From assembly GCA_046261745.1 (NCBI GenBank), contig JBHEOD010000004.1, positions 2,528-41,995 on the forward strand: 39,468 nucleotides of DNA, read 5' to 3'. This stretch comes from Candidatus Binatia bacterium. GTDB lineage: Bacteria; Desulfobacterota; Binatia; UBA1149; CAITLU01. How positions within the stretch are numbered: the first letter of the stretch is position 1; every line of letters starts with the position of its first letter. Below are positions 2,417 through 39,468 of the stretch, piece after piece. A program made the position numbers and the translations under genes. The notes under the pieces were generated by a model, which was not told the DNA's origin, searched no databases, and was given only the letters and a program-made list of their open reading frames with translations.

Positions 2417-3607
2417 ATGCGTGAAGCCGTCATCGTCGATGCCATTCGTACTCCCCTCGGCCGCGGAAAGAAGAACGGAGCCCTTTCGGGCTGGCACGCC
2501 GTCGACCTGGCCGCCGAGCCGCTTCGCGCGCTGATCGCGCGCACCGGCCTCGATCCGGCCCTTGTCGAGGACGTGATCATGGGTTGCGTGGGCCAGGTGG
2601 GCGAGCAGGGGCTCAACATCGGCCGCAATGCGGCGCTGGCGGCCGGCTTTCCCGAAACCGTCTGCGGAACCACGGTGGACCGCCAGTGCGGATCGAGCCA
2701 GCAGGCACTGCATTTCGCCGCGCAAGGCGTGATGGCCGGCGCGTACGACTGCGTGATCGCGGCGGGCGTCGAGTCGATGAGTCGCGTACCGATGGGCACC
2801 ACCGCGATGGTCGGCGGCGCGCCGTTCGGACCGAAGATGATCGACCGCTACGTGGAGGCCAACCTCTACGGCCGCGGCGGGCTCGTGAACCAGGGCCTCT
2901 CGGCGGAGGAGATCTGCAAGAAGTGGAACCTCAAGCGCGAGGAACTCGACGCGTTCTCGGCGCAGTCGCACCAGCGCGCCGCCCGTGCGACGGAGATGGG
3001 CTGGTTTGCGCACGAGATCACGCCCGTCGAGCGCACCCACGACGACGGCGGCAAGGAACTCATCACGACCGACGAAGGAATCCGCGCCGAGACGACGGTG
3101 GAGAAGCTCGGAGCGCTGAGGCCTGCATTCGAGGAGACCGGCTGCATCACGGCCGGCAACTCGAGCCAGATCACCGACGGGGCTGCGGCGGTTCTGATCA
3201 TGGAGCGCGGCCGCGCCGAAGCGCTCGGCCTCAAGCCGCGTGCACGCTTTCATGCGTTCGCGCTCGGTTCCTGCGATCCGGTCATCATGCTGACGGCGCC
3301 GATTCCGGCCACCCACAACGTGCTCAAGCGTGCCGGTCTCGAGTTCTCGGACATCGACGCGGTCGAGATCAACGAAGCGTTCGCGCCGGTGGTGCTGGCC
3401 TGGGCGAAGGAGTTCGGGCCCGACATGTCGAAAGTGAATCCGAACGGCGGTGCGATCGCGCTCGGACATCCCCTCGGCTGCAGCGGCACGCGCCTGATGA
3501 CGACGCTTTTGAACCAGCTTGAGCGCTCGGGCGGCCGCTACGGCCTGCAGACGATGTGCGAAGGGGGCGGGATGGCGAACGCGACCGTCATTGAACGCCT
3601 GGGCTGA
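2417..3607 (+). CDS. Acetyl-CoA C-acyltransferase (thiolase), FadA6-like
   Basis: RBS AGGAGG upstream. Catalytic motifs VDRQCGSSQQA, NEAF, GHPLGCSG and GLQTMCEGGG. Confidence 0.93.
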   Translation: MREAVIVDAIRTPLGRGKKNGALSGWHAVDLAAEPLRALIARTGLDPALVEDVIMGCVGQVGEQGLNIGRNAALAAGFPETVCGTTVDRQCGSSQQALHFAAQGVMAGAYDCVIAAGVESMSRVPMGTTAMVGGAPFGPKMIDRYVEANLYGRGGLVNQGLSAEEICKKWNLKREELDAFSAQSHQRAARATEMGWFAHEITPVERTHDDGGKELITTDEGIRAETTVEKLGALRPAFEETGCITAGNSSQITDGAAAVLIMERGRAEALGLKPRARFHAFALGSCDPVIMLTAPIPATHNVLKRAGLEFSDIDAVEINEAFAPVVLAWAKEFGPDMSKVNPNGGAIALGHPLGCSGTRLMTTLLNQLERSGGRYGLQTMCEGGGMANATVIERLG

Positions 3608-6282: not shown

Positions 6283-7172
6283 TTTCTCCGCGCGCGCAGA
6301 TAGCTTCGCAACAGGATGGAGGAGAGGTTCACGCTCATGACCAGCACCACCAGCACCAGCGCGGTGGCGTAGGGCATCGCCGGCGGTACGTTGGGAACCT
6401 GGGTGGAAAGGGTGAACAGGTGCATCGACAGGGCCATGCACTGGTCGTGCACCGAATTCGGAAGGAAGGGCAGGTAGAAGGCCGCGCCCGTGAACATGAT
6501 CGGGGCGGTCTCGCCGGCTGCACGCGAGACCTGAAGGATCACGCCGGTGAGGATCCCCTGGATCGAGTTCGGAAGCACGACGTGGCGGATGGTCTGCCAG
6601 CGTGATGCGCCAAGCACCCAGCAGGCTTCCCGGAACGACATCGGAACCGCCGACAGCGCCTCCTTGGTGCTTGCGATGATCACCGGCAAGGTCATCACGG
6701 CGAGTGTCAGCGAAGCGGCCAGGATGCTGGTGCCGAGTTGCAGGAAAAGCACGAACGCGCCGACGCCGAACAGCGCGTGCACGATGCTCGGAACGCCGGC
6801 CAGGTTCACGATGGCGAGATGGATGATGCGCGTCATCCAGTTCTCCGGCGCGTACTCGTTGAGATAGATGGCGGCGAGGATGCCGATGGGCGCGGCGATC
6901 ATCAGGGACACGCCGACGAGCCAGAGGGTCCCGACGATGGTCGGGAAGATGCCGCCCGCGGTCATGCCGGCGGCCGGCGAGTCGAGCAGGAACGAGAGGC
7001 TCAGCGCCGGGGCGCCCTTCACGATGAGCAGCCCGAGGATCGCGGTGAGCGGAAGCACGAGCAGCACCGTCATCATCGCGAGGACCGCGCGCGCGACGCT
7101 TTCCGTGTGCCGGCCGGCCCGGGTTCGCTCCGTTGTGGTGAACGGGGAGGTGGCCTGGAATGGCTCACTCAT
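6276..7172 (-). CDS. pstA: Phosphate ABC transporter permease PstA
   Basis: ATG 7172 overlaps the pstC stop. YLNEYA, NLAGVPSIV, EAA-type loop SFREACWVLGASRWQTI, RAAGETAPI. Confidence 0.93.
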   Translation of the reverse strand: MSEPFQATSPFTTTERTRAGRHTESVARAVLAMMTVLLVLPLTAILGLLIVKGAPALSLSFLLDSPAAGMTAGGIFPTIVGTLWLVGVSLMIAAPIGILAAIYLNEYAPENWMTRIIHLAIVNLAGVPSIVHALFGVGAFVLFLQLGTSILAASLTLAVMTLPVIIASTKEALSAVPMSFREACWVLGASRWQTIRHVVLPNSIQGILTGVILQVSRAAGETAPIMFTGAAFYLPFLPNSVHDQCMALSMHLFTLSTQVPNVPPAMPYATALVLVVLVMSVNLSSILLRSYLRARRKW

Positions 7173-8101
7173 CGCGAGGCCTTGCGCCCGCGAACCATCA
7201 GGTCGGCGGTGAGGTTGACGATGAAGGTAAGCGTGAACAGCAGCACGCCGATGGCGAACAGGGCCTGGTAGTGGTCGCTGCCGCGTGCGGTCTCGCCGAG
7301 CTCGGCGGCGATGGTCGCGGTCAGCGTGCGCACGGAGTCGAGCGGGCTGTGCGGAATCTGCACCGCGTGACCGGTGGCCATCAGCACGGCGATGGTCTCC
7401 CCGATGGCGCGGCCGACACCGAGCAGCACGGCGGCCAGCAGACCGTTTCGAGCGGCCGGCAGCAGCACCTTCGTGATCGTCTGCCAGCGCGAGGCGCCCA
7501 TCGCGAGGGAGGCTTCCCGGTAGGAATCGGGAACCGCCTTGAGCGCGTCTTCCCCGATCGAGACGATGATCGGCACGCTCATCAGCCCGAGGATGAGTCC
7601 GCCGTTGAGCACGTTGAGCCCGATCGGCGCGTCGAACATCGCGATGATCATCGGGTTGACCATGGCCAGTCCGATGAAGCCCCACACGACGGAGGGGATG
7701 GCCGCGAGGAGCTCGATAACGACCTTGAGCAGTTCCTTGCGGCGGCCCGTGGTGAACTCGGACACGAAGATGGCGGCACCGAGGCCGAACGGCACGGCGA
7801 TCGCCATCGCGAGGGCCGTGACGCTGACGGTGCCGGCAATCAGCGCCAGCGTTCCGTAGCGCTTCTGGCCGACCGAGGTAGGCACCCACTCGGTGCTGAA
7901 CAGGAACTGTCCGAAGTCGAGCCGATTCACGATGAATTCGGCTCCCGAACCCACCACGAACACGAAGATCGCGAACACGAAAAAGATCGCGCTGAATCCG
8001 CATGCACGGATGAGCAACTCGACGAGTCGCTCGATGGTCACGGAGGCGAGGCTGCGCCCCCGGCGGACCGGGGGATGCCTTGTCACGGACGGTGATGTCA
8101 T
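7169..8101 (-). CDS. pstC: Phosphate ABC transporter permease PstC
   Basis: ELLAAIPSVVWG, EDALKAVP..REASLAMGASRWQT, GRAIGETIAV. Confidence 0.93.
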   Translation of the reverse strand: MTSPSVTRHPPVRRGRSLASVTIERLVELLIRACGFSAIFFVFAIFVFVVGSGAEFIVNRLDFGQFLFSTEWVPTSVGQKRYGTLALIAGTVSVTALAMAIAVPFGLGAAIFVSEFTTGRRKELLKVVIELLAAIPSVVWGFIGLAMVNPMIIAMFDAPIGLNVLNGGLILGLMSVPIIVSIGEDALKAVPDSYREASLAMGASRWQTITKVLLPAARNGLLAAVLLGVGRAIGETIAVLMATGHAVQIPHSPLDSVRTLTATIAAELGETARGSDHYQALFAIGVLLFTLTFIVNLTADLMVRGRKASR

Positions 8102-8235
8102 GGCCGGTGAATTCTCAGTCCGATGTCGATTGGGCGGATTGGGTGTTTCGATGTCGCGCTCGTCGGTTCATGGTCTGTTGCCCCGGTCGTCGCTGGATCG
8201 TCGCGCTTACTCGTCCCGGCTGGCGCTCTCGTGCT

Positions 8236-9102
8236 TCAAAGCGGGACGAACCCGTTCTCGCCGACGATTTTCTGGCCCGCCGGCGACAGGATCCAGTCGA
8301 GATAGGTTTTCGTCTCGCCCTGGGGCTCGCCGAGCGTGTACATGAAAAGGTTGCGCGAAAGCGGGTACTCGCCGCTCTTGGCGGTCTCGAGGGTCGGGGC
8401 CACGCAGGGAGTGGTAGTGTCCTTGGCCAGGCAGACCTGATGGACCTCGTGGGTGGCGTAGCCCATGCCGCTGTAGCCGATCGCGCACGGTGTCTTGGAG
8501 ACGAGATCGACGACATCCTTGCTGCCCTGCATGTCGCGCGATCCGAGTTTGAAGTCGCTCGTCGCACCGAGCACCGCTTCACGGAAATACTCGTATGTGC
8601 CCGAGTTCGACTGCCGGCTGACGCGGATGATCTTCTGGTCGGCGCAGCCCGGGACCTCCACGCCAACCGAGGTCCAGGTGTCGCAGGTTCCCTTCTCCCC
8701 GTAGATGCATGCGAGGTTTTCCATTGTGAGAGTCTTGGCGGGGTTGGCGGCGTGCACGTAGACCACGATGGCGTCTCGCGCCACCTTGAACTCGACCGCT
8801 TCCTTGCCGGTGTGGCTCTTGACCTGCTCGCGCTCGTCGGCGTGAATGTCGCGGCTTGAATTGGCGATGTCGACGTTGCCGTTGATCAGCGCGGCGATGC
8901 CGGTGCCGCTTCCGCCGCCGCTAACTGCTACGGCGACGGTCGGCTTCACGGTACGATAGGTTTCCGCCCAGGCCTGCGCGACGTTGACCAGGGTGTCGGA
9001 GCCCTTGTTCTGAAGAAGAACGCGGTCTCCGCTGCCGCGCGAGCACGCAGAGAGCATCGCCAACGCAGCCGCTGTCATGATTAGGGTGGTTCTCGAGCTC
9101 AT
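8236..9102 (-). CDS. pstS: Phosphate ABC transporter substrate-binding lipoprotein
   Basis: ATG 9102 with GGAG upstream; lipobox-like MLSAC; KGSDT, GGGSGTG, SRQSNSGT, YPLSRNLFMY. Confidence 0.92.
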   Translation of the reverse strand: MSSRTTLIMTAAALAMLSACSRGSGDRVLLQNKGSDTLVNVAQAWAETYRTVKPTVAVAVSGGGSGTGIAALINGNVDIANSSRDIHADEREQVKSHTGKEAVEFKVARDAIVVYVHAANPAKTLTMENLACIYGEKGTCDTWTSVGVEVPGCADQKIIRVSRQSNSGTYEYFREAVLGATSDFKLGSRDMQGSKDVVDLVSKTPCAIGYSGMGYATHEVHQVCLAKDTTTPCVAPTLETAKSGEYPLSRNLFMYTLGEPQGETKTYLDWILSPAGQKIVGENGFVPL

Positions 9103-9177
9103 TTCCAGTTTTCTCCGAATCGGCACGTCGTCATCGCCAAGGCCGGCGGGTTGGCTTCATCGAGACACGCGCGCCGT

Positions 9178-10284
9178 TCAGTTTGCCGTGTCCAGGCTCG
9201 AGACGGTGCCGTGCAGGCTCTGGATCAGCGTCGTGATGCGTTCGAGAAGGTCGTCGAAGAGGCCCGAAAGCGCTTCGGCCCCGGCATCCGCCAGTGCGTC
9301 GGGCATGTCCCAGTCCACCACCACCGTCCGGAAGCCGAGCGTCTGCTGGGAGACCGCGCGCGCGGCCTCGCGGTCCACCGCGACGATGATGCGGTAATTG
9401 CCGAGCGGACCCATCGTGGCCAGCGGCGAGGCCTCCCGGTCGGAGAGGTTGATGCCGCGCTTGGCCAGGAAGTCGAGGAGCGGGGCGTCGGGATGTCCGG
9501 GGGCGGTCGTCGCGGCGGCGAACGTGAACTGGTCGCCCGCGACCGTACTCGCGATGGCCTCGGCGATGGACGCCAGGGACGAGGTGCCCGACGACAGGAA
9601 CAGGATGGTGGCCGTGCCCTTCGACTGATGCTTCACACTCTCGCCGGTGAGCATGTAGTAGACCTCTTCGCAGATGTTCACGGCCTGGTCGGCCACGCGC
9701 TCGTAGCGGTTGGCCACCGACAACAGCGAGAACAGCCTGGAGAGTTCGTCCGAACTGACCGGGATCTCCGCCACGAGGTTCTGGTAGATGTCGTGGTGAA
9801 GGGCGTTGGCCGTTGCCTCGAGCGCGATCGTCCGCCTGGCGAGATCGAGATCCTCGTCGAGAAAGGAGCGAACAGCCTGCCGCATCATGTCGACCGCCAC
9901 TCCAGCTATCTTCTCGAAACTTTCGAATTTGTTGACTTTTTCGGTCTTGGCCAAAAGGATGGCTTGGCGGTTGATGCTCTCGGCGTAGTCTCCGACCCGC
10001 TCGAGCTCGGAGACGATCTTGGCCACGGAGTGCACGAAGCGGAGGTGGGTGGCCACCGGGATGTGACGGACGATGAACTCGACGCACATCGCGTCGATCA
10101 TGCTCTCGAGGTCGTCCACCCGGGAGTCGCGCAAAATGGCGGCGTACGCGAGCTTGGTGTCGCCGGCGGTGAGCGCGCGCACCGAGTCCTCCAGCCCGCG
10201 AAGGGCAAGATCGGCCATCTCACGAACGCGATCCCGGATGCGGTGGATGTCGTTCTGGAGCTTTTCTTCCAGGTGCGAGGTCAC
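9178..10284 (-). CDS. phoU: PhoU fused to a C-terminal degenerate ArsC/LMW-PTP-like domain
   Basis: The first ~215 aa carry two PhoU repeats (ELERVGDYA; YERVADQAVNICEEV). The C-terminal ~150 aa follow the LMW-PTP/ArsC pattern (ILFLSSGTSSLASIAEA ... RGINLS ... DWDMPDA). Confidence 0.88.
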   Translation of the reverse strand: MTSHLEEKLQNDIHRIRDRVREMADLALRGLEDSVRALTAGDTKLAYAAILRDSRVDDLESMIDAMCVEFIVRHIPVATHLRFVHSVAKIVSELERVGDYAESINRQAILLAKTEKVNKFESFEKIAGVAVDMMRQAVRSFLDEDLDLARRTIALEATANALHHDIYQNLVAEIPVSSDELSRLFSLLSVANRYERVADQAVNICEEVYYMLTGESVKHQSKGTATILFLSSGTSSLASIAEAIASTVAGDQFTFAAATTAPGHPDAPLLDFLAKRGINLSDREASPLATMGPLGNYRIIVAVDREAARAVSQQTLGFRTVVVDWDMPDALADAGAEALSGLFDDLLERITTLIQSLHGTVSSLDTAN

Positions 10285-10348
10285 GCCGCGAAGTCCTTGT
10301 TGTCGGCGAAATATGGGGGAATGCCCGGTGCCGACGAAGCCGCGGGTC

Positions 10349-10375
10349 TAACGCCCTGCTGACATCAAAGCAACC
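10349..10375 (-). promoter_or_regulatory. Possible Pho-box-like 11 bp-phased direct repeats upstream of phoU
   Basis: On the minus strand, GGTTG, TGTCA and CGTTA units start exactly 11 nt apart (plus-strand CAACC 10371, TGACA 10360, TAACG 10349). Only one unit matches well. Confidence 0.3.
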
Positions 10376-10459
10376 AGCCTCGGCGCAGTTACGCAGCCCC
10401 CTTTGACCCCCGTCGCACACGCGGCCCGAACGGGCGTTGGCAGAGAACGATGCTCCGTG

Positions 10460-10473
10460 TAGAACGCGTTCCA
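10460..10473. promoter_or_regulatory. KstR-type operator TnnAACnnGTTnnA
   Basis: TAGAACGCGTTCCA matches the KstR consensus at every defined position and ends 41 nt before the ATG of the sterol side-chain operon. Confidence 0.65.
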
Positions 10474-10514
10474 CTCTGAACGCGGTCACCGGCCGCCCAA
10501 GGAATCGCGCAAAC

Positions 10515-10997
10515 ATGAGCCAGGACAAGTTGAGGCACTACCAGGGGGTCCTCTCGGCGGTGCATACCCTCGAGTACCCGTACACGCGCTCGGTAGGAAC
10601 GGTGATCGGCACCTTCCTGGCGGGCCTTCGAGACGGCCGCATCCTCGGAACCCGGACACCGTCCGGCGACGTGCTGGTGCCGCCGAGCGAGTTCGATCCG
10701 GCCACCGCCGCCACGCTCACCGAGATGTGCGACGTGTCGGACACCGGTACGGTCACCACCTGGAGCTGGGTGGCCGAACCGCGAGCAAAGCATCCGCTGC
10801 AAACGCCGTTTGCGTGGGCGCTGATCCGCCTCGACGGCGCCGCAACCGCCTTGCTTCATGTCGTGGACGTCGCCGACGAGGCGTCGATGAAGACGGGAAT
10901 GCGCGTGAAGGCCAGGTGGCGGGCCGAGCGCAAGGGCATGATCACCGACATCGAGTGTTTCGAAGCCGCCGATGCCGGCTCGGGAGCAAAGTCATGA
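10515..10997 (+). CDS. DUF35/OB-fold acyl-CoA-binding protein lacking Zn-ribbon cysteines (Rv3521 N-half-like)
   Basis: YTRSVG, FLAGLRDGRILG, GTVTTWSWV, PFAWALIRLDGA, GMRVKARW...ITDI. Confidence 0.82.
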   Translation: MSQDKLRHYQGVLSAVHTLEYPYTRSVGTVIGTFLAGLRDGRILGTRTPSGDVLVPPSEFDPATAATLTEMCDVSDTGTVTTWSWVAEPRAKHPLQTPFAWALIRLDGAATALLHVVDVADEASMKTGMRVKARWRAERKGMITDIECFEAADAGSGAKS

Positions 10998-11515
10998 GCG
11001 ATCCACTGCCCGGGACGGTCCGCGAACTTCCGACGCCGATCAAGATGATCACCGTGCCGACAAGTCTGGAATACACCATCACGCCCGGCAAGGCGCCGGC
11101 GCGATTTCTCAAGGGCATGATGGAGGGACGCATCCTCGGCGAGCGCTGCCCGAAGTGCCGCAAGGTCTACATGCCCCCGCGCGGATCGTGTGCGACCTGC
11201 GCGATTCCCACCGAAGAGCAGGTGGAGTTGTCGAACAAGGGCACCGTCACGACATTCTGCGTGGTGAACCTGCCGTTTTACGGACAGGCAGTCGAGATTC
11301 CGTACGTGTGTGCGGCGGTGGTACTCGACGGCGCGGATCTTCCGTTTTTCTGTCTGCTGGCCGAATGCCCGGTCGACGACGTGCGCATGGGCATGCGCGT
11401 CGAAACGGTGTGGTGCGAACCGGCCGAGCGCAAGCCGTCGCTCGAGAACATCCGCTACATGCGACCGACCGGTGAGCCGGACGCGTCTTACGATTCCTTC
11501 AAGGAGCACCTGTGA
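10994..11515 (+). CDS. DUF35 Zn-ribbon/OB-fold protein (Rv3521 C-half-like)
   Basis: ATGA overlap with the previous gene. CPKC...CATC Zn ribbon, GTVTTFCVVN, GMRVETVW, PTGEPDA. Confidence 0.88.
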   Translation: MSDPLPGTVRELPTPIKMITVPTSLEYTITPGKAPARFLKGMMEGRILGERCPKCRKVYMPPRGSCATCAIPTEEQVELSNKGTVTTFCVVNLPFYGQAVEIPYVCAAVVLDGADLPFFCLLAECPVDDVRMGMRVETVWCEPAERKPSLENIRYMRPTGEPDASYDSFKEHL

Positions 11516-12582
11516 TGCGCGAGATTGCGGTCGTTTCCTTCGCGCAGGCTGTGTCGGTGCGTCGCGATATCATCCAGAACGAAGTGGAGATCCTGATGCC
11601 TGTGGTTGCCGAAGCGGTCGCCTCGAGCGGGCTGACGCGCGACCGTATCGGCTTCACTGTTTCCGGCAGCTGCGACTATCTCGCCGGCGTGCCGTTCTCG
11701 TTCGTGATGGCTCTCGACGGTGTCGGAGCCTGGCCGCCGATCGAGGAATCGCACGTCGAAATGGACGGAGCCTGGGCGCTGGCCGAGGCCTGGACGCGAC
11801 TTCAGCACGGCGACATCGACACGGCGCTCGTGTTCGGTTTCGGCAAGTCGTCGGTCGGCGAGCTTCCGGACGTGCTCACTCTTCAGCTCGATCCGTATCT
11901 CGTTGCGCCGCTGTGGCCGGATTCGATCAGCGTGGCCGCGCTGCAGGCCCGCGCGATGATCGATGCCGGTCTCTGCACCGAGAAGGACATGGCCGAGGTG
12001 GCGGTGCGCAGCCGTCGCGATGCGAAGTCGAATCCGTACGCGCAACTGACCGGCGACTTCTCCGTCGACCAACTGCTGGCCGACCGCTGCATCTCGTCGC
12101 CGCTGCGCCGTCACGATTGTGCGCCGATCTCCGACGGCGCCTCGGCCGTGATCCTGGCCGCTGGCGACGTCGCGCGAGCGCTGTGCGAGAAGACCGGCCG
12201 CACGCCGGCCTGGATCCGCGGCCTCGATCATCGTGTCGACTCGCAGAACCTCGGCGGTCGCGACCTCACCACCTGCCCCTCGGCGCGCATCGCGGCGCTC
12301 AAGGCGGGCGTGACCGACGGCCCCGTCGATATCGCCGAGATCTACGCGCCGTTCACTCACCAGGAGATCCTGCTGCGAAAGGAACTGGGCCTTTCCGCGT
12401 CCACGCGAGTGAATCCTTCCGGAGGCGTGCTCGCGGGCAATCCGATGATGGCGGCTGGACTCATCCGCATCGGCGAAGCTGCGTCGTACATTCACCGCGG
12501 CGAGGCGAAGCGAACCGTTGCCCACGCCACCTCGGGCCCTTGTCTTCAACAGAACCTCGTCTGCGTGCTGGAGGGAGAGTGA
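11515..12582 (+). CDS. ltp4: Thiolase-fold lipid-transfer protein, Ltp4-like (aldolase subunit)
   Basis: SGSCDYLAG, GAWPPIEESHVEMDGAWA, VNPSGG, AHATSGPCLQQNLV. Sits between DUF35 and ltp3, as in the mycobacterial order. Confidence 0.8.
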   Translation: MREIAVVSFAQAVSVRRDIIQNEVEILMPVVAEAVASSGLTRDRIGFTVSGSCDYLAGVPFSFVMALDGVGAWPPIEESHVEMDGAWALAEAWTRLQHGDIDTALVFGFGKSSVGELPDVLTLQLDPYLVAPLWPDSISVAALQARAMIDAGLCTEKDMAEVAVRSRRDAKSNPYAQLTGDFSVDQLLADRCISSPLRRHDCAPISDGASAVILAAGDVARALCEKTGRTPAWIRGLDHRVDSQNLGGRDLTTCPSARIAALKAGVTDGPVDIAEIYAPFTHQEILLRKELGLSASTRVNPSGGVLAGNPMMAAGLIRIGEAASYIHRGEAKRTVAHATSGPCLQQNLVCVLEGE

Positions 12583-13739
12583 TGGCCCGTCATTGTGCAG
12601 TCGTAGGAATCGGCCAGACCCGCCACGCGGCCAAGCGCGGCGACCTTTCGATGGTCGGACTCGTTCGCGAGGCCGCGCTCGCCGCGCTCGAAGACGCGGG
12701 GCTAGACTGGAAGGACGTCGAAGCGCTGGTGATCGGCAAGGCTCCGGACATGTTCGAGGGCGTGATGCAGCCGGAACTGTATCTTGCCGATGCCCTCGGC
12801 GCCGTCGGCAAGCCGATGATCCGCGTGCACACGGCCGGCAGCGTGGGCGGGTCGACCGCACTCGTCGCGGCGCACCTCGTGCAGTCGGGGCAGTTCTCGC
12901 GCGTGTTGACGGTGGCTTTCGAGAAGCAGTCGGAAAGCGAGGCCACCTGGGCGATCACGCCGAAGATCCCGTTCCAGCCGCCTCTCGTGGCCGGAGCCGG
13001 AGGCTACTTCGCGCCGATCATTCGCGCGTACATCGACCGTTCGAAGGCACCGGCCGACATCGGACTTCGCGTGGCCGTCAAGGACAGGCAGAACGCGATG
13101 CGCAATCCGTTCGCGCACCTGCACCTTCCGGACATCGACATGGAAACGGTGGCGAACTCGCCGCTGCTGTGGGACCCCTTGCACTATCTCGAGTGCTGCC
13201 CGTCGTCGGACGGCGCGTGCGCGATGGTGCTGGCCGACGAGAGCGCCGCCAGAAAGGCTCCCGCTCGTCCGGCATGGGTGCTCGGCACGGCGATGCGCAG
13301 CGAGCCGACGATGTTTCCCGGCCGTAACCAGATCAATCCGCGAGCGGGCCGTGAGTGCGCGCAGGCCGTCTACCGACAGGCCGGCATCGACAATCCGCGC
13401 AAGCAGATTGATACCGCCGAGATCTACGTGCCGTTCAGCTGGTACGAACCGATGTGGATGGAGAACCTCGGCTTCGCCGACTTGAACGAAGGCTGGAAAA
13501 TGACGCTCGACGGTGTGACGGCCTTCGACGGGGCGCTTCCGATCAATCCGTCCGGCGGTGTGCTGTCGTCGAATCCGATCGGGGCCTCGGGAATGCTGCG
13601 ATTCGCCGAGGCTGCGATGCAGGTGCGCGGTGCCGCCGGCGAGCATCAGGTGGACGGGGCGAAGATCGCGCTCGGACACGCGTACGGCGGCGGATCCCAA
13701 TTTTTCTCGATGTGGATGGTCGGCGCAGAAAAACGCTGA
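12582..13739 (+). CDS. ltp3: Thiolase-fold lipid-transfer protein, Ltp3-like (steroid side-chain aldolase)
   Basis: Real start ATG 12582 overlaps the previous stop. GKAPDMFEGVMQPE, RVHTAGSVGGST, EIYVPFSWYEPMW, SNPIGASG, GHAYGGGSQF. Confidence 0.85.
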   Translation: MARHCAVVGIGQTRHAAKRGDLSMVGLVREAALAALEDAGLDWKDVEALVIGKAPDMFEGVMQPELYLADALGAVGKPMIRVHTAGSVGGSTALVAAHLVQSGQFSRVLTVAFEKQSESEATWAITPKIPFQPPLVAGAGGYFAPIIRAYIDRSKAPADIGLRVAVKDRQNAMRNPFAHLHLPDIDMETVANSPLLWDPLHYLECCPSSDGACAMVLADESAARKAPARPAWVLGTAMRSEPTMFPGRNQINPRAGRECAQAVYRQAGIDNPRKQIDTAEIYVPFSWYEPMWMENLGFADLNEGWKMTLDGVTAFDGALPINPSGGVLSSNPIGASGMLRFAEAAMQVRGAAGEHQVDGAKIALGHAYGGGSQFFSMWMVGAEKR

Positions 13740-13804
13740 TCCGCCGGCGGGAACGCGCCGACGAAGGTCGCGGCTTCGAGCCGGACGGACAACGGGAGAC
13801 CCCG

Positions 13805-15421
13805 ATGGAACTGAATATCGCAGACCTGTTCGAAATGGTTGTCGACACGGTTCCCGAGCGCGAGGCGCTCATCTGCGGGGACAAGCGCTACACGTACGCA
13901 GAGCTGGACCGCGAGGCCAATCGGCTGGCCCACTTCCTTGCCGGCAAGGGCGTGAAGCCCGGCGAGCACGTCGGCATGTATCTTTACAACGGCGCCGAAT
14001 ACCTCGTGGCCGTCCTGGCCGCGTTCAAGATCCGCGCGGTTCCCGTCAATGTGAACTACCGTTACGTCGAGGACGAGCTGGCCTATCTGCTCTCCGACAG
14101 CGACCTCGTCGCGCTGTTCTATCAGCGCGAGCTCGGTTCGCGCGTGGCGGGCCTCAAGGGCCGCGTGCCGAAGGTGAGGGTGCTCGTCGAAGTGGACGAC
14201 GGCAGCGACGCGCCGCAAGCGTTGCCGGAGGCCGTGTCGTTCGGGGATGCGCTCGCGTCCGGAAAGAGCGAGCGCGATTTCGCAGCGCGCTCGGGCAAGG
14301 ACATCTACATCATCTACACCGGCGGCACGACGGGCATGCCGAAGGGCGTGATGTGGCGCCATGAAGACGTCTTTTATGCAGGCCTGCAGGGCGGCAACCC
14401 GGGCGGACCTCCGATTGCGAGGGGCGAAGACCTCGTCGACATCGTGCGCGGCGGCATGGGCCTGACCGTGTTGCCTTCGGCGCCGTTCATTCACGGTGCG
14501 GCGCAGTGGGCCTCGCTGATCGGCTTCTTCGGCGGCGGCAAGGTCGTCGTGCAGGGCGGAAAGAGCTTCGAGCCGCGGACGGTTGCGAGACTCATTCGCG
14601 ACGAGAGGGTCAATACGCTGACGCTGGTAGGCGATGCGATGGCCAGGCCGCTTGGCGAAGCCATCGAGGCGATGGGGGACGAGGCCGACGTGTCGTCCGT
14701 GTTCGTGATCGGCTCTGCCGGCGCGGTGCTGTCGGAGACGGTAAAGGAACAGCTGCGACGCGTGATGCCGTCGGTGATGATCGTCGACAGTTTCGGCGCC
14801 ACCGAGACCGGGCACCAGGGCTCGATGATGGCCGGTACGGGGCACGGCGCCGGCCAGGTGCCGCTCTTCTTCATGAACGACACCAACTGCGTGTTCGACG
14901 ACGAAATGAAGCCGGTGGTGCCGGGATCGGGCGTGATGGGCCGCCTCGCCCGTCGCGGCCACATCCCGGTCGGCTACTACAACGACCCCGAGAAGACGGC
15001 CAAGACGTTCTTCGAGATCGACGGCGTTCGCTGGGTGATGCCGGGCGATCTTGCCACCGTGGAGAGCGACGGCAGCATTCGCGTCTTCGGCCGCGGCGCG
15101 GTCTGCATCAACAGCGGCGGGGAGAAGATCTTTCCCGAAGAAGTGGAAGCGGCGCTCAAGGCGCATCCCGACGTCCTCGACGCCGTGGTGGTCGGCATTC
15201 CCGACGAGCGCTGGGGGCAGCGGGTGGCGGCGCTCGTGCAGCCGCGACCCGGTGCGAAGCCGAGTGCGGAGGATCTCGACCGCCACTGCCGTACCAAGGT
15301 GGCCGGCTACAAGATTCCCCGCTTCGTGCGTTTCGTCGATGAGGTGATGCGCCAACCGAGCGGCAAGCCCGACTACCGCTGGGCGGCGTCCTACGCCGCG
15401 GAGCAGGCCGCCGCGGTTTAA
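13805..15421 (+). CDS. fadD19: Acyl-CoA synthetase, FadD19-like (steroid-CoA ligase)
   Basis: ATG 13805 with GGAG upstream. MELNIADLFE start, YTGGTTGMPKGVMWRHED AMP-binding loop, CINSGGEKIFPEEVE, PSGKPDYRWA. Confidence 0.8.
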   Translation: MELNIADLFEMVVDTVPEREALICGDKRYTYAELDREANRLAHFLAGKGVKPGEHVGMYLYNGAEYLVAVLAAFKIRAVPVNVNYRYVEDELAYLLSDSDLVALFYQRELGSRVAGLKGRVPKVRVLVEVDDGSDAPQALPEAVSFGDALASGKSERDFAARSGKDIYIIYTGGTTGMPKGVMWRHEDVFYAGLQGGNPGGPPIARGEDLVDIVRGGMGLTVLPSAPFIHGAAQWASLIGFFGGGKVVVQGGKSFEPRTVARLIRDERVNTLTLVGDAMARPLGEAIEAMGDEADVSSVFVIGSAGAVLSETVKEQLRRVMPSVMIVDSFGATETGHQGSMMAGTGHGAGQVPLFFMNDTNCVFDDEMKPVVPGSGVMGRLARRGHIPVGYYNDPEKTAKTFFEIDGVRWVMPGDLATVESDGSIRVFGRGAVCINSGGEKIFPEEVEAALKAHPDVLDAVVVGIPDERWGQRVAALVQPRPGAKPSAEDLDRHCRTKVAGYKIPRFVRFVDEVMRQPSGKPDYRWAASYAAEQAAAV

Positions 15422-15542
15422 CCGGGTTCCACGGCCGCGCGGCGCGGCACGCGCTTTCACGTCGCGCGAGTCCCGAATCGAGTGGCTACGGGGAGATCCG
15501 CCCGTTCATCAATCCATCCAGGGCATCCAGGAGGAACCGCCA

Positions 15543-16355
15543 GTGTCCGAACAACCAGCTTTGCTCGTCGAACGCGACGGTCACGTCGCCACCGTCACCA
15601 TGAACCGGCCCGAGTCGCGCAACGCGCTCAACCCGGAGATGATCTGCCGCATGGCTGATGCGTGGGACATGATCGATACGGACGACGACGTTCGCGTTGC
15701 GATCCTCACCGGCGCGGGCGGTCATTTCTGTGCCGGCGCCGACCTCGACAAGCTGGTGTCGCGTTCGCTCAAGGGACTACCTCCCGAGAACGAATGGGAA
15801 CAGCGCATCCGCGACGACTACCAGGTCATTTTCCGCGGCCTCTTGCGCACCAGCCGCACGATCAAACCACTGATCGCGGCCATCGAAGGCTCGTGCATCG
15901 CCGGCGGAGTCGAGATCCTGCAGGCCACCGACATTCGCGTGGCGGCCGAGAGTTCGAAGCTCGGAGTGTCGGAAGCGCGGTGGGGCCTGTTTCCGCAAGG
16001 CGGCTCGACGACACGACTGCCGCGCCAGATTCCGTTCACTCGTGCGATGGAAATGCTGCTGACGGGCGACCACTACAGCGCACGCGAAGCGCTCGACATG
16101 GGGCTCATCGGTCGGGTCGTGGCCGACGGTACCGCGCTCGAGACGGCCCGCGCGATCGCCGCGCGCATCGCCGAGAACGGCCCGGTGGCCGTGCGCAACA
16201 TCAAGCGCGCGGTCCTCGAAGTGGAAGGCATGACCGAAGAGCAGGCCCGGGAAGTCGAGATGCGCCTGGGCATGGAGGTGTTCTCCACCGAGGACGCCAA
16301 GGAGGGGCCGCGCGCGTTCAAGGAAAAGCGCAAGCCCGAGTTCAAGGGCCGCTGA
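15543..16355 (+). CDS. echA19: Enoyl-CoA hydratase, EchA19-like
   Basis: AGGAGG RBS then GTG. FCAGADL, KPLIAAIEGSCIAGGVEILQATDIRVA, SEARWGLFPQGGS, EGPRAFKEKRKP. Confidence 0.8.
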   Translation: MSEQPALLVERDGHVATVTMNRPESRNALNPEMICRMADAWDMIDTDDDVRVAILTGAGGHFCAGADLDKLVSRSLKGLPPENEWEQRIRDDYQVIFRGLLRTSRTIKPLIAAIEGSCIAGGVEILQATDIRVAAESSKLGVSEARWGLFPQGGSTTRLPRQIPFTRAMEMLLTGDHYSAREALDMGLIGRVVADGTALETARAIAARIAENGPVAVRNIKRAVLEVEGMTEEQAREVEMRLGMEVFSTEDAKEGPRAFKEKRKPEFKGR

Positions 16356-16383
16356 GTCCTTCGCACCGCCACGGCGACCAACC

Positions 16384-16416
16384 GGCGAGCACATGCCTGG
16401 CCGGCATGTGCTCGCC
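16384..16416. terminator. Strong hairpin between convergent genes (likely bidirectional terminator)
   Basis: GGCGAGCACATGCC-TGGCC-GGCATGTGCTCGCC, a 14 bp perfect stem. Confidence 0.65.
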
Positions 16417-16427
16417 ATCGTTTGACG

Positions 16428-18044
16428 TTACGGGCAGCCGCCGCTGCCTGGCGTGTAGACTGTCTGCGGGGTCGTTCCGCACAGCAGTGAGACGAGCGAC
16501 TGCAGCTCGAGCCTGCCCGGGCCCGGAAATCCCGCGACAATGTTCACGGTCTGACTCGTGGTGGCCGGCGAGCAGAAAGTGCCGCCGGCGAACGGGATGA
16601 CCGGATGCGGCGCGCCCTCGGTGACGATTGGATCGAGGAAGCACGGCCTTCGTTCGACAAGACCGCACTCTCCGCCGTCCACGCCGATCTGGCCAGGCTC
16701 GCAGTCGCTGTTGGTCTGGCAGGCGAGAAGGCCCGTGCCGTCCGCGCGAACGATGCCGTCGCAGAACGTGTCGTCGGGACCTTCGGCGCACAGCCCTTCC
16801 TCGTCACCGGCGTCCTCGCACACTCCCGTGGTGCATGCGTTCGGCAGCGTCTGTTCGCCGTTGCCATTACTCGAACAAGTTCCTGCCCCGGCGGCTTCGC
16901 ACACGGAATCGAGGTCGCAAGGAATGGAGAAGTCGCCGCTGCAGACCCGGCACGGACAGTCGAGCTCGGCTGCCACACCGTCGACCGCGCAGGGGATTTT
17001 CGCGTGGAGTTCGTCGCGGCCCGTGGTCAGGTCAATCTCGATCGACAGGCCGGGCCCCGCGATGTTCGCCTCCGGAAGCGGGAAGCAGTCGAGACTGTAA
17101 AGAGCGCCGGTGGGCGGTGGGAAGGTGGTGTTGCCGGCCTGCGCATCGCAACTCTCGGTGTCGTTGAGGCCGCCCACGCAAACGCCGTCGCGCATGCCGT
17201 CCGCCGGCGTGGTGTCGTTGATGCAAATGGGGCAGGGCTGCAGGTTGCTGAGACCGGAGAATACCTTTTCCCTCAGATGAAGCCCGATCGTGCCCGAACC
17301 CTGATCCACGTTGGCCATGCCATCGGGCTGCCCGGCCAGCGTGTTCAGCACGCAGACCGGAACGTTCGCGGAATTGAGCGGCAGCGGCGGTCCGAAGTTG
17401 CAGGTGCAGTTTCCGCCGCCGCACAGTTCGTCGGGTCCGGCGACGGTGAAACAGCGCTGCCGGTTGTCGTTGTCACAGCGGCAGTTGCCGAGTGACGGAT
17501 CGTGACCGGTGATCGTGCACTCGCCGCACGGCGCCGGCCCCTGGCAGTCGAGGAAGACGCGGGCGGGCACCGGATCGTTCAGGTCGAAATTGTGCGAGAT
17601 CCCGGTCCATCCGACGTCGGTTTCGCTGCGGGTACGACACCTGCCGATGGACGGGTCGCAAACGGAGAACGCGGCGCATTCGGCGTTCGTGGCGCAGGTG
17701 CCGCGAATCCCGGCAAACAGCGCGAACTGCGCCACCACCGGGCATTCGTCCGCCGGATCGCAATCGGGACAGTCCAGCGTGACCGGCAGTCCCACTGCTC
17801 CCTGCAGCACGAGGAGTGCGTCGCTGGCTGTGATGGTGCTCGAACTGTTGACGTCGCAGACGCAGATGTTGCAGGGCAACACCTCGACGGCCGCGTTCAG
17901 AACGTAGAGGGAATCGGTCGTGGTTTCCGGCGCAGTGCCGTCGACCGGAAGGCCACAGGCACGTTCCTGCGCAAGAGCAGACACCGGCAGAAGAAGACAG
18001 CAGAAAAAGAAGGGCGCGAAATAACAGCGAGTGAAATGATCCAT
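16428..18044 (-). CDS. Secreted cysteine-rich protein with an N-terminal dockerin/EF-hand-like module
   Basis: ATG 18044 after GGAGGTG. Signal peptide ending ALA-Q; CDVNSSSTITASDALLVL motif; about 47 Cys by hand count. Confidence 0.8.
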   Translation of the reverse strand: MDHFTRCYFAPFFFCCLLLPVSALAQERACGLPVDGTAPETTTDSLYVLNAAVEVLPCNICVCDVNSSSTITASDALLVLQGAVGLPVTLDCPDCDPADECPVVAQFALFAGIRGTCATNAECAAFSVCDPSIGRCRTRSETDVGWTGISHNFDLNDPVPARVFLDCQGPAPCGECTITGHDPSLGNCRCDNDNRQRCFTVAGPDELCGGGNCTCNFGPPLPLNSANVPVCVLNTLAGQPDGMANVDQGSGTIGLHLREKVFSGLSNLQPCPICINDTTPADGMRDGVCVGGLNDTESCDAQAGNTTFPPPTGALYSLDCFPLPEANIAGPGLSIEIDLTTGRDELHAKIPCAVDGVAAELDCPCRVCSGDFSIPCDLDSVCEAAGAGTCSSNGNGEQTLPNACTTGVCEDAGDEEGLCAEGPDDTFCDGIVRADGTGLLACQTNSDCEPGQIGVDGGECGLVERRPCFLDPIVTEGAPHPVIPFAGGTFCSPATTSQTVNIVAGFPGPGRLELQSLVSLLCGTTPQTVYTPGSGGCP

Positions 18045-18052
18045 GTGTTCAC

Positions 18053-18075
18053 CTCCACGGTGCATCACCGTGGAG
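18053..18075 (-). promoter_or_regulatory. RBS-sequestering hairpin in the 5' UTR of the Cys-rich gene
   Basis: CTCCACGGTG-ATG-CACCGTGGAG on the minus strand, a 10 bp perfect stem whose 3' arm contains the GGAG of the SD. Confidence 0.5.
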
Positions 18076-18136: not shown

Positions 18137-18331
18137 TCACTCTTCTGCGATGGAGATCGCCTGCCGCGGACACAGGCGCACGGCTTCTTTCAGCTTGTCC
18201 CGCATGGATTCGGGGGGGTGTTCGATGAGGATGTTGAGCGAGTCCTGGTCATCCACCTGGAACACGTCAGGGAGGATGCGCATGCACACGGCATTGGCTT
18301 CGCACAGATCGTAGTCGACGACGACTTTCAT
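18137..18331 (-). CDS. Ferredoxin, single-cluster [3Fe-4S] type (P450 partner, FdxD-like)
   Basis: 64 aa with CEANAVC ... CPRQAI, directly downstream of the P450. Confidence 0.9.
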   Translation of the reverse strand: MKVVVDYDLCEANAVCMRILPDVFQVDDQDSLNILIEHPPESMRDKLKEAVRLCPRQAISIAEE

Positions 18332-19667: not shown

Positions 19668-19784
19668 GTTGTGCGCTCCCCAGTGTGGTCTTGGTCGCGA
19701 TGCCGTCCTAGACTCCGCGCTCGTTCCGGCCGTCCCCGTGGCCGTCCGGGGTGAAGCTTGTCGTTCCTGCCGCGACCGGGCATG

Positions 19785-19798
19785 AACGAACGTTTGTT
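19785..19798. promoter_or_regulatory. Candidate TetR operator in the divergent P450/TetR intergenic region
   Basis: AACGAACGTTTGTT, an AT-rich near-palindrome with one mismatched pair, in GC-rich surroundings. Confidence 0.5.
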
Positions 19799-19886
19799 GG
19801 GTAACAGTTTCCGCGCACTGCGGCAAGACGAGAATGGCTCCCAGCGCGTCCATGACGCCCAAGGGCGTGTGACCTCAGGTGATTCC

Positions 19887-25610: not shown

Positions 25611-26027
25611 TCACGAGAAGACGACAACGGCCGACCCGGGCGTCGTCTTTTTCCCTTCGGCATTCTCGACCCAGACGTCGAGTTCGACGACCCTCTGGCC
25701 TGCGTCAGTCGTCTTTTTCTTCTTCACCACGCCCTTGCAGACGAACTCCTTGTCGGGAAGGTCCATGCCGCGGTACTGGCACGACAGCTTGCGGATGCGT
25801 CCGTCGTGCCCGAGCCAGTTCGACACCAGTTCGCCGAGCGATGCGTACTTGAAGCGCCCGTGCACGATGATCGAGCCGATCTGCCTGGCCTGCGCAAAGT
25901 TGTAGTCGTGGTGAAGGGGGTTGAAGTCGCCGCCTCCGGCCGAGTACTTCACGAGAGTCTGCAGCGTGGGGGTCTTGCGCAGTTCCGGAAGCGTGTCGCC
26001 TTCGTTGATGTCATCGAATCGGGGCAT
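25611..26027 (-). CDS. MaoC-like (R)-hydratase/dehydratase, catalytic subunit
   Basis: YSAGGGDFNPLHHD (D-x4-H hydratase 2 motif) and IIVHG. Confidence 0.85.
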   Translation of the reverse strand: MPRFDDINEGDTLPELRKTPTLQTLVKYSAGGGDFNPLHHDYNFAQARQIGSIIVHGRFKYASLGELVSNWLGHDGRIRKLSCQYRGMDLPDKEFVCKGVVKKKKTTDAGQRVVELDVWVENAEGKKTTPGSAVVVFS

Positions 26028-38817: not shown

Positions 38818-39468
38818 CTACGCAGCTTCGCTGTAGAACTGCTTGCACCATGTGCGGAAAACGCCGATCGGGCCGTCCCCGTCGCACAGCACCGGGCGGT
38901 CGAGGAAGGCCTTGTTCTCCCAGATCGGGATGTCCTCGCGCATCTGCTTCTCGATGTCGGCGATCAGTGCCTTGCCGACGCCGCGCGTGGTTCGTTCGTC
39001 GCCGAGACTCTTGACGCTGAACGAGAAGCGTACGTCGACGTATTCGCCGTCGATCGGCGTGACGGACGTCACGAGTGAGGTTTCGACGATGCCGCGGAAG
39101 GCGACCTGACCGAACCCGAAGCCGTACGACTTCGATTCGATGCTGCCGTCGACTTCCCCGGCCGGCGTTCCCATCTTCATCTGCGAGACGACATGAAGGC
39201 ACGGGCCTTCGGTGGTGGCTTGGCTCTGGGGCACGGTCAGGGTGCCGTGCACGTAACGGAAGTGCGCCTGGTCCACCGAGTTCTCGGCCATGTCCTGGTT
39301 GTGCGTGCGGATTTTCCAGCGCCTCTTCACGTAGGGCGTCCAGCCTTCAAGGCCGTACTGCGGCACCACCGGGATCTCCCAGTCGGGCGACTTGCCGCCA
39401 GCGTGATGCCACAGCATCACGAGTCCGTTGCGCTCGACCACCGGATGCGAATGCAGGCGGGCCGAGGG
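38818..39468 (-). CDS. Rieske oxygenase catalytic domain, KshA / Neverland (cholesterol 7-desaturase)-like; 5' part lies outside the window
   Basis: Frame is open to the window end. ENSVDQAHFRYVHG (D-x2-H-x4-H iron site); C-terminal DIPIWENK...PVLCDGDGPIGVFRTWCKQFY. Confidence 0.82.
   Translation of the reverse strand, partial: PSARLHSHPVVERNGLVMLWHHAGGKSPDWEIPVVPQYGLEGWTPYVKRRWKIRTHNQDMAENSVDQAHFRYVHGTLTVPQSQATTEGPCLHVVSQMKMGTPAGEVDGSIESKSYGFGFGQVAFRGIVETSLVTSVTPIDGEYVDVRFSFSVKSLGDERTTRGVGKALIADIEKQMREDIPIWENKAFLDRPVLCDGDGPIGVFRTWCKQFYSEAA

Follow-up and report, generated by a model that had tools for sequence, protein, structure and literature searches.

We analyzed a 39,468-nucleotide (nt) stretch of a metagenome-assembled genome (MAG) deposited as Candidatus Binatia bacterium (GCA_046261745.1, contig JBHEOD010000004.1, positions 2,528 to 41,995). 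We call this whole stretch the window and use its own numbering unless a contig of the MAG (C219, C146, and so on) is named. At 10515-16355 the window holds six genes, all on the plus strand, for two DUF35-family proteins (g1 and g2), an Ltp4-type and an Ltp3-type thiolase-fold protein (g3 and g4), a FadD19-type acyl-coenzyme A (acyl-CoA) synthetase (g5), and an EchA19-type enoyl-CoA hydratase (g6). Judging from the sequences, these genes probably encode a KstR-regulated module that removes the branch from sterol-type side chains by retro-aldol cleavage and that operates, in this organism, without canonical ring cleavage. The organism, a soil bacterium, would most likely trim or partly transform sterol-type molecules and not mineralize them. 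An earlier reading of the same letters, made without database searches (the sequence-only reading), had gone further and proposed a complete phytosterol degrader.

Gene layout and orthology

Genes were called by third-position G+C (the G+C content of the window is 64-68%) and checked against Pfam and NCBIfam. By their layout, the six genes are a single predicted operon. The sequence-only reading had described six co-oriented genes, the first four with overlapping stop and start codons, and the coordinates and junctions read directly from the sequence agree: g1 and g2 share ATGA (10994-10997), and at the GTGATG junctions between g2 and g3 (11512-11517) and between g3 and g4 (12579-12584), the preceding TGA is overlapped by the following start, whether GTG or ATG is used. 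A GGAG-type Shine-Dalgarno sequence is present both in the 65-nt gap between g4 and g5 and in the 121-nt gap between g5 and g6. A survey of the locus with one genome per species yielded at least 593 relatives, and the best 80 of these were used for synteny counts. In 77 of the 80 loci, g1 to g4 are colinear on the same strand, the remaining 3 being interrupted by contig ends; because order and strand are the same in so many other genomes, the arrangement of g1 to g4 is beyond chance. A promoter and terminator scan of 10200-16600 was uninformative, returning no promoter-like site and 4 terminator-like sites against 4.0 expected. The scan omitted a perfect inverted repeat between g6 and the convergent next gene (16384-16416) because no T-run follows it; this repeat, read from the sequence, is a putative terminator.

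As a reference, we used 180 kb of Rhodococcus DNA around the homologous locus, in which 150 open reading frames (ORFs) were called and 135 received NCBIfam names, the other 15 being left out under a size limit; these ORFs were searched by tblastn against the whole MAG. Each of the four enzyme genes exceeded the cut-off of a specific NCBIfam subfamily model, namely, NF005924/PRK07937 for g3 (full length, 538.6 bits; cut-off, 419), NF006180/PRK08313 for g4 (659.5 bits; cut-off, 514), NF005863/PRK07798 for g5 (735.8 bits; cut-off, 543), and NF005864/PRK07799 for g6 (371.9 bits; cut-off, 316). The same models were the top ones for Rhodococcus Ltp4 (617.7 bits), Ltp3 (754.7 bits), FadD19, and EchA19, respectively, with identities of 55% for g3 and Ltp4, 62% for g4 and Ltp3, 46-47% for g5 and FadD19, and 57% for g6 and EchA19. 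Directly upstream of ltp4 lie two OB domains, with a zinc ribbon in the second: g2 matched zf-ChsH2 (35.9 bits) and OB_ChsH2_C (51.0 bits) in Pfam, and g1 had no Pfam match to zf-ChsH2 and thus lacks the ribbon. By tblastn, g1 is 52% identical to the Rhodococcus DUF35 region, and the two DUF35 halves together are 52-53% identical to it.

The best matches in the MAG of Rhodococcus Ltp3, Ltp4, DUF35, EchA19, and FadD19 were the window genes. In the reverse direction, g5 and the Rhodococcus fadD19 that adjoins echA19 were reciprocal best matches (500.6 bits versus 150.3 bits for the runner-up); the MAG has two more FadD19-like paralogues, on contigs C146 and C73. With subfamily cut-offs exceeded and best matches in both directions, the orthology to the actinobacterial ltp3/ltp4/Rv3521/fadD19/echA19 set that the sequence-only reading had assumed is borne out. 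In passages of PMC6273163, fadD19 is described as required for growth on beta-sitosterol and not on cholesterol, and the same is reported for ltp3 and ltp4, the organisms being M. smegmatis and R. rhodochrous.

Loss of the nucleophilic cysteine and a modeled complex

We aligned the thiolase-fold proteins (alignment A2) and looked at the column of the nucleophilic Cys. The PRK08256-type SCP2 thiolase of the window has Cys there (NNNCSTG), Ltp3 has Gly (TAGSVGG), and Ltp4 has Met, or Met/Asp (EMD-GAW), with the window and Rhodococcus alike in both of the latter. From these sequences, we infer that Ltp3 and Ltp4 are of the aldol-lyase type and are not thiolases. We found no solved structure of the Ltp3/Ltp4 subfamily in the PDB, where the best match was 4yzo and the Ltp2 aldolase 6ok1 was weaker.

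A complex model of g2 against g4 plus g3 scored 0.90, and the best of three controls scored 0.47; this mark is attained by 116 of 157 solved complexes and by 2 of 215 mismatched pairs. Contacts agreed between runs by at least 92%, and the partner, g2, had a predicted local distance difference test (pLDDT) value of at least 87. In the model, g2 touches both thiolase-fold chains, on a surface formed jointly by g3 and g4. The model supports binding of g2 to g3 plus g4, with the reservation that its score may reflect memory or likeness only, because similar DUF35-thiolase complexes have been solved (6ok1, 7pxp, and 6esq).

A KstR-type operator and a KstR-like regulator

The site at 10460-10473, in front of g1, is the sole match in the window to TnnAACnnGTTnnA (0.14 expected; at least one match in 14 of 100 shuffles). 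This motif is given in passages of PMC1995591 as the mycobacterial KstR core motif, present between Rv3520c and Rv3521, and the same passages list ltp3, ltp4, fadD19, and echA19 as KstR regulon members in mycobacteria. Across the MAG, TnnAACnnGTTnnA had 26 matches, where first-order Markov simulations gave about 1.6 per Mb. A tighter form of the motif had 7 matches, three of them in front of KshA-like genes and the others in front of g1, a TetR gene, a luciferase-like monooxygenase gene, and a FadE26-like gene (C97). Sites with at most one mismatch from TAGAACNNGTTCTA also numbered 7, all of them noncoding. Five of these coincide with tighter-form sites (those of g1, the TetR gene, the KshA-like genes on C280 and C71, and the luciferase-like monooxygenase gene on C146), and the remaining two are both on C146; the tighter-form sites with two mismatches lie 30 nt before the KshA-like gene of C146 and 49 nt before the FadE26-like start on C97. 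In other genomes, 79 loci could be evaluated, and in 33 of them, from several phyla and including Rhodococcus and both family relatives of the window, TnnAACnnGTTnnA stands no more than 400 nt ahead of the first DUF35 gene; about 3 such loci were expected from a background density of 0.088 per kb.

The TetR gene with its own operator in front lies at C219:42247-42864, just past the end of the window. The top NCBIfam model of its product is KstR, matched over the full length (123.6 bits; next model, 43 bits), and the protein is a distant KstR homologue (35% identity). The TetR gene within the window (19758-20522) showed no similarity to KstR in NCBIfam.

The operator sites of C146, four in number, lie near three luciferase-like monooxygenases, a catechol-type O-methyltransferase, an HgmA_N-like protein, and a cyclase; the same neighborhood further holds Amidohydro_2 proteins, short-chain dehydrogenases/reductases (SDRs), an AMP-ligase, a KshA-like oxygenase, and an alpha/beta hydrolase. 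An SDR gene is close to each of the KshA-like genes of C71, C146, C240, and C280.

Ring-degradation genes in the MAG, its family, and its class

With the Rhodococcus queries, tblastn at an E value of ≤1e-15 gave no MAG match to KstD, HsaA, HsaB, HsaC, HsaD, IpdA, IpdB, ChsH1/2, or any Mce4 protein. HsaD was searched by tblastn only, and the IpdA search used a single Rhodococcus query. Among hidden Markov models (HMMs), HsaA had no match in the MAG, HsaC reached at best 20.5 bits, and KstD reached at best 72+70 bits, in an FAD_binding_2 flavoprotein with a twin-arginine (Tat) signal. This sole KstD-HMM match of the MAG (C280:1-1248, minus strand; signal, RRDFLRLAG) is cut by the contig end and adjoins a KshA-like gene and an operator; its product is probably no KstD orthologue but a periplasmic protein.

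To allow for the incompleteness of the MAG, we sampled 101 genomes of the class, the MAG included. Ltp4 above its cut-off was present in 26 of them. An IpdA orthologue (53-59% identity to Rhodococcus, one of them split) was found in 23 of the 101 genomes and in 22 of the 26 with Ltp4, and KstD-like proteins (290-729 bits, none over the cut-off of 788) were found in 20 and 17, respectively, so that about a fifth of the sampled genomes carry IpdA and a KstD-like protein together with the Ltp4 module. HsaC-like proteins (E ≤ 1e-30) occurred in 28 of the 101 genomes and HsaA over its cut-off in 1, in neither case in a genome with Ltp4. The Ltp4 carriers with IpdA or KstD-like genes have no HsaC-like gene at E ≤ 1e-30; steroid catabolism in the class may pass through rings A/B by a route that is not the canonical meta-cleavage.

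The four genomes with Ltp4 and without IpdA were the MAG, two of its family relatives, at 100% and 95% completeness, and a fourth genome at 88%. None of the four sampled family relatives, which are 94-100% complete, had a KstD-like (E ≤ 1e-60), HsaC-like (E ≤ 1e-30), or IpdA (E ≤ 1e-15) match. Two of the four carry the operon, and in the 100%-complete one the order is unchanged over the whole neighborhood of about 40 kb. Behind other loci, IpdA was present in 5/5 genomes at 54-62% identity (three with Deltaproteobacteria/Myxococcota labels and two with Acidimicrobiales labels). The module thus accompanies steroid ring C/D genes outside the window's family and does not do so within it. For the phytosterol degrader of the sequence-only reading, these results divide the claim: the orthologous side-chain operon stands, but of the ring-degradation genes on which that reading had staked itself (kstD, hsaABCD, and ipdAB), none was found in the MAG, and KstD-like, HsaC-like, and IpdA proteins were found in 0/4 relatives.

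Host

The MAG comprises 3.84 Mb in 284 contigs, with a completeness of 77.67% and a contamination of 3.76%. Because it encodes LpxC (267.2 bits) and three Omp85-family proteins, its host is a diderm, and the Gram-negative envelope that had been suggested earlier holds. That suggestion had been based on ydbH/ydbL-type genes, of which the ydbL part was recovered as a DUF1318 domain near 22960-23259 but the ydbH part was not, since the 701-residue ORF concerned has no Pfam match at E ≤ 0.1. The region (20522-23259) consists of this ORF followed, in another frame, by an ORF with a small-lipoprotein-like start and a DUF1318 (YdbL-type) end.

Six named homologues match g3 or the window's PlsB-type gene at 75% identity or more; five of them are labeled Candidatus Binatia and one Candidatus Limnocylindrales. 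The lineage Ca. Binatia, earlier offered as a possibility, therefore gains from these labels, and the host probably belongs to the class Binatia. The one Candidatus Limnocylindrales label is that of a PlsB homologue at 76% identity; submitters' taxon labels are not uniform for this lineage. As regards hopanoid or sterol synthesis as a source of substrate, SQHop_cyclase_C had no match in the MAG at E ≤ 1e-10, and two partial matches (44-47 bits) were seen in one relative. The Sterol_MT_C profile matched none of five genomes, controls included, and is hence uninformative.

Distribution and phylogeny of the four-gene core

Homologues of g3 number at least 8,000, all at E ≤ 0.001. The nearest among the matches listed are 85-95% identical, and identities of 67-72% are still reached by MAG proteins labeled Dadabacteria, Hyphomicrobiaceae, Deltaproteobacteria, Dehalococcoidia, and Actinomycetota. 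The best 80 loci come from Myxococcota/"Deltaproteobacteria," Acidimicrobiia, and Actinomycetes, with single records from Spirochaetaceae, Spongiibacteraceae, Cellvibrionales, Endozoicomonas, Rickettsiales, Chloroflexota, and Sterolibacterium. The two DUF35 halves are separate genes in 57 of the 80 and fused in 23 (e.g., in Rhodococcus, Lentzea, and Nocardioides). A FadD19-like gene follows g1-g4 immediately in 11 of the 80 loci, and the full six-gene order was found in one (L008) as well as in two genomes from the same family as the window.

We built a quick maximum-likelihood tree of Ltp4 plus Ltp3 from the window and 69 of 82 loci, 13 having been excluded for coverage, identity, or stop codons. 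The window groups with its two family relatives, and their sister is L006 plus L008 (Shimodaira-Hasegawa-like approximate likelihood ratio test [SH-aLRT] value, 99). It falls outside a 40-row clade that holds Rhodococcus, Lentzea, Nocardioides, and most Acidimicrobiia (SH-aLRT value, 95). These results indicate that the four-gene core is widespread over phyla, Gammaproteobacteria among its carriers, and not peculiar to actinobacteria. The term "actinobacterial-type," which the sequence-only reading had used, is apt as a history of discovery but not as a statement of descent, because the core occurs in many phyla and the window copy lies outside the main actinomycete clade.

About 20 further genomes of the class have a second, divergent tandem of Ltp4-like and Ltp3-like genes, with NF005924 scores of 330-390 bits (below the cut-off) and 90-100 bits for the neighbor. 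This tandem may be a paralogue of the module that serves another substrate.

Other pathway genes and neighbors

About 2 kb downstream of the operon, on the opposite strand, are a P450 gene and, directly downstream of it, a gene for a small ferredoxin (Table 1), so that the CYP125-like P450 with ferredoxin noticed earlier was indeed found. Against PDB entries, the P450 scored 461 bits with a reconstructed CYP125 (8vxi), about 280 bits each with CYP125A1 and CYP124, and 212 bits with CYP142. It adjoins the operon in the same-family genome too. The 3-ketoacyl-CoA thiolase at 2417-3607 scored below the NCBIfam cut-offs of NF005077 and NF005865 and may supply a partner step of the operon. Elsewhere, the MAG encodes a FadE26/FadE27-like pair (56% and 42% identity).

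The KshA-like oxygenase that had been placed in the window is there in part: its KshA_C domain lies inside, but its Rieske part lies beyond the window, past a run of 10 N (C219:41996-42005) that separates the two and shifts the apparent frame. The interruption is an assembly gap and is not evidence of a pseudogene. In all, the MAG has five genes with a KshA_C domain; their nearest PDB entries are KshA enzymes (140 bits versus 66 bits for other Rieske oxygenases), with identities to Rhodococcus KshA of only 26-31%.

Table 1. Features of the window and of the sequence just past its end (C219 coordinates refer to the contig)
Feature	Position	Strand	Description
KstR-type operator	10460..10473	.	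TAGAACGCGTTCCA; 41 nt upstream of the g1 ATG
g1	10515..10997	+	DUF35 OB-fold protein, 160 amino acids (aa); N-terminal half of Rv3521-type protein; Pfam OB_ChsH2_C, 51.8 bits
g2	10994..11515	+	DUF35 protein, Cys4 zinc ribbon plus OB fold, 173 aa; C-terminal half of Rv3521-type protein
g3	11512..12582	+	Ltp4-type thiolase-fold protein without nucleophilic Cys, 356 aa
g4	12579..13739	+	Ltp3-type thiolase-fold protein without nucleophilic Cys, 385-386 aa
g5	13805..15421	+	FadD19-type acyl-CoA synthetase, 538 aa
g6	15543..16355	+	EchA19-type enoyl-CoA hydratase, 270 aa
Inverted repeat	16384..16416	.	Perfect, 14 bp, 5-nt loop; putative terminator
Ferredoxin	18137..18331	-	Single-cluster, 64 aa; Fer4_15, 42.4 bits; Fer4_13, 35.6 bits
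P450	18366..19667 (ORF to 19862)	-	CYP125/CYP124 type; putative omega-hydroxylase of sterol or methyl-branched chains
3-Ketoacyl-CoA thiolase	2417..3607	+	FadA5/FadA6-like; 46-53% identity to Rhodococcus steroid-cluster thiolases
KshA-family Rieske oxygenase	38818..39468	-	C-terminal part; KshA_C, 125.4 bits
TetR regulator	C219:42247-42864		KstR-like; own operator in front

A divergent cluster at 25611-28773 has a minus-strand pair of MaoC-like dehydratase genes facing an SCP2-type thiolase gene and a short enoyl-CoA hydratase gene, and it is kept in the same-family genome. It can be likened to side-chain hydratase/thiolase sets, yet it is distinct from the ChsH1/ChsH2/Ltp2 set. The "Ltp2-like" gene at 26749-28083 was considered as an Ltp2 orthologue and rejected: its product matches PRK08256 (673 bits) and not PRK07855 and keeps the catalytic Cys, and it is therefore a true SCP2-type thiolase.

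Between the operon and the ferredoxin and P450 genes, a minus-strand gene (16428-18068) encodes a 546-residue, Cys-rich protein that begins like a signal peptide and falls into no Pfam or NCBIfam family; tblastn gave no match (at least 40% identity over more than half the length) in three 20-kb same-family stretches around the operon. On the other side, a pstSCAB-phoU phosphate-uptake operon (4730-10284, minus strand) stands back to back with the sterol-type operon, an arrangement kept in the same-family genome. Its PstB ORF is unusually long (465 aa), the ABC domain beginning at residue 232. Neutral-lipid storage beside the catabolic genes is suggested by a group of genes at 33308-38762 that encode a HAD-acyltransferase fusion, a PlsB-type glycerol-3-phosphate acyltransferase, and a WS/DGAT wax-ester/triacylglycerol synthase.

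Proposed pathway and alternative readings

In the scheme that we favor, the P450 and its ferredoxin would oxidize an isoprenoid-type (sterol) side chain at its end, giving an acid from which the FadD19-type ligase, by its orthology, would form the CoA thioester. The ChsE4/E5-like acyl-CoA dehydrogenase pair, which on C97 follows a site of the same operator type, and the EchA19-type hydratase would then yield a tertiary beta-hydroxyacyl-CoA with the hydroxyl at the alkyl-branched carbon. This product would be cleaved by a putative heteromer of Ltp3 and Ltp4 that bears the two DUF35 proteins (modeled above for g2, g3, and g4), through retro-aldol chemistry and not thiolysis. The KstR-like TetR protein is predicted to repress the operon through the site at 10460-10473. 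The module would work without the 9,10-seco ring-opening genes (KstD and HsaABCD) or the ring C/D genes (IpdAB).

Several points weigh against this scheme. The regulator's 123.6 bits fall below the cut-off of 280 of the KstR equivalog NF033703, and we therefore call it KstR-like only; other fatty acid TetR regulators also use AAC..GTT half-sites; and the result with the tighter motif form is partly circular because the form was defined after the matches had been seen. Similarly, g6 reached 351.8 bits with the EchA19 equivalog NF051848, below its cut-off of 400, and is therefore named EchA19-type only. The scheme assigns no carboxylase to the classical C28-carboxylation step, a carboxylase not having been searched for. 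The genes by which the steroid product could be used (those for KstD, HsaA-D, IpdAB, and Mce4) were not found in the MAG and family searches, and completeness of the MAG is 77.67%. Even in actinobacteria, the aldol-lyase role of Ltp3/Ltp4 is supported by knock-outs (PMC6273163) and homology.

We considered it possible, if unlikely, that the same enzymes act on nonsteroid beta-alkyl-branched lipids, isoprenoid or otherwise methyl- or ethyl-branched, and that the steroid link is ancestral. Such a substrate would fit a family in which the ring-degradation genes were not found by our searches. It would fit the enzymes equally well because the P450 is as near to CYP124, deposited as "methyl-branched lipid omega-hydroxylase," as to CYP125A1. 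Furthermore, retro-aldol cleavage at a tertiary beta-hydroxyl would not be specific to steroids, and the neighborhood is full of wax-ester/triacylglycerol and phospholipid acyltransferase genes. However, the KstR-type operator is kept and is shared with KshA-family oxygenases and the ChsE4/E5-like dehydrogenase, conservation relative to the orthologues of steroid degraders is high (55-62%), and the module nearly always occurs with IpdA outside the window's family. This last observation, like the orthologous operon, the CYP125-type P450, the KstR-like regulon, and the five KshA_C-domain oxygenases whose nearest structures are KshA, would also suit a complete phytosterol degrader in which the operon feeds the aerobic 9,10-seco pathway, as would the KstD-like genes that accompany the module in other genomes. 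We think this improbable: the KstD, Hsa, Ipd, and Mce4 queries found nothing in the MAG by tblastn at the threshold used, the KstD, HsaC, and HsaA HMMs found little or nothing, the family relatives (two of the four with the operon) lack KstD-like, HsaC-like, and IpdA matches, and the KshA-like proteins are distant from Rhodococcus KshA. That g3 and g4 are ordinary beta-ketothiolases of fatty acid beta-oxidation in a generic lipid-catabolism cluster is very hard to credit. Source annotations do name their homologues "acetyl-CoA acetyltransferase," and the fold is that of thiolases (Pfam Thiolase_C_1), but both proteins have lost the nucleophilic Cys, both belong to specific subfamily models and not to acetyl-CoA C-acyltransferase models, and they are always paired with two DUF35 genes.

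Beyond the branch-removal module, we offer a wider proposal with considerable doubt. In one Binatia family, a KstR-like regulon might join the module and the ChsE4/E5-like dehydrogenase to five divergent KshA-family oxygenases, each with an SDR neighbor, luciferase-like monooxygenases, an HgmA_N-like dioxygenase-type protein, and Amidohydro_2 proteins, without KstD, HsaABCD, or IpdAB. If true, this would mean either a "sterol-trimming" lifestyle, in which the side chain is harvested and modified nuclei are released, or a noncanonical route into the nucleus.

Comparison with known systems

Degradation of the alkyl side chain of sterols has so far been tied almost wholly to actinobacteria. Passages of Bergstrand 2016 (PMC4810484) report that the Proteobacteria examined had no CYP125/142 orthologues and did not use cholesterol, passages of Holert 2018 (PMC5790920) place 9,10-seco degraders only in Actinobacteria and Proteobacteria, and, for sponge Binatia, passages of PMC9531527 report sterol biosynthesis clusters. 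We found no literature linking Binatia to steroid degradation, the supplements of Bergstrand 2016 and Holert 2018, which might list related genomes, lying outside this search. The operon type is already known; the wider points are the module shared across phyla with a conserved operator, the fifth of the class sample with IpdA and KstD-like genes but no HsaC-like gene, and the family that has the side-chain part only. The Ltp3/Ltp4-DUF35 module with a KstR-type operator is common to many phyla, and one family retains it without ring cleavage, which adds to the likely sterol transformers known from soil and sea and suggests cross-feeding of steroid nuclei. In addition, the compact, translationally coupled four-gene version is usable for biochemical and structural work on Ltp3/Ltp4.

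The closest known system is the ltp3/ltp4 plus Rv3521 set of R. rhodochrous, Mycolicibacterium, and M. tuberculosis (Rv3521-Rv3523), with which the window shares the order DUF35-DUF35-ltp4-ltp3. The likeness to the Rhodococcus set extends to NCBIfam subfamilies over their cut-offs, 55-62% identity, loss of the Cys, and a KstR-type operator before the DUF35 gene. For FadD19, the steroid-26-oyl-CoA ligase, and EchA19, it consists of reciprocal best matches and the same NCBIfam models, at 46-47% and 57% identity. In contrast, the DUF35 halves that are fused in Rhodococcus, Lentzea, and Nocardioides are two genes in the window, and fadD19 and echA19, which in actinomycetes form a divergent pair 3-9 kb upstream, directly follow in the same operon. 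Unlike actinomycetes, the host is a diderm, and Mce4 and Kst/Hsa/Ipd genes were not found in its MAG.

The Ltp2-ChsH2(DUF35) aldolase (6ok1) resembles the window module in its Cys-less thiolase fold with a DUF35 partner, and by this analogy retro-aldol chemistry would be expected here. Ltp2 further resembles it in a Tyr at the "LY/IY" position, where SCP2-type thiolases carry His; the Tyr residues of Ltp2 are presumably catalytic. However, Ltp2-ChsH2 is a distant relative (90 and 28 bits), with PRK07855 as the Ltp2 subfamily, and the window module has two different thiolase-fold subunits and two DUF35 proteins. The BbsAB benzoylsuccinyl-CoA thiolase (7pxp) and the archaeal thiolase/HMG-CoA synthase/DUF35 complex (6esq and 6et9) likewise have a DUF35 zinc-ribbon/OB partner, but their chemistry is still that of thiolases or synthases, and their substrates differ; against these families, the window proteins scored far below the cut-offs (g2, 27 versus 250 bits, a weak match to BbsA; g4, 119.5 versus 750 bits). 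Finally, the regulon found here is like the mycobacterial KstR regulon in having TnnAACnnGTTnnA in front of the gene for the regulator itself as well as ltp, fadE26, and kshA-type genes. It differs in its distant regulator and in having no kstD, hsa, or mce4 genes, and, unlike its mycobacterial counterpart, it holds luciferase-like monooxygenases, an HgmA_N-like protein, and Amidohydro_2 proteins.

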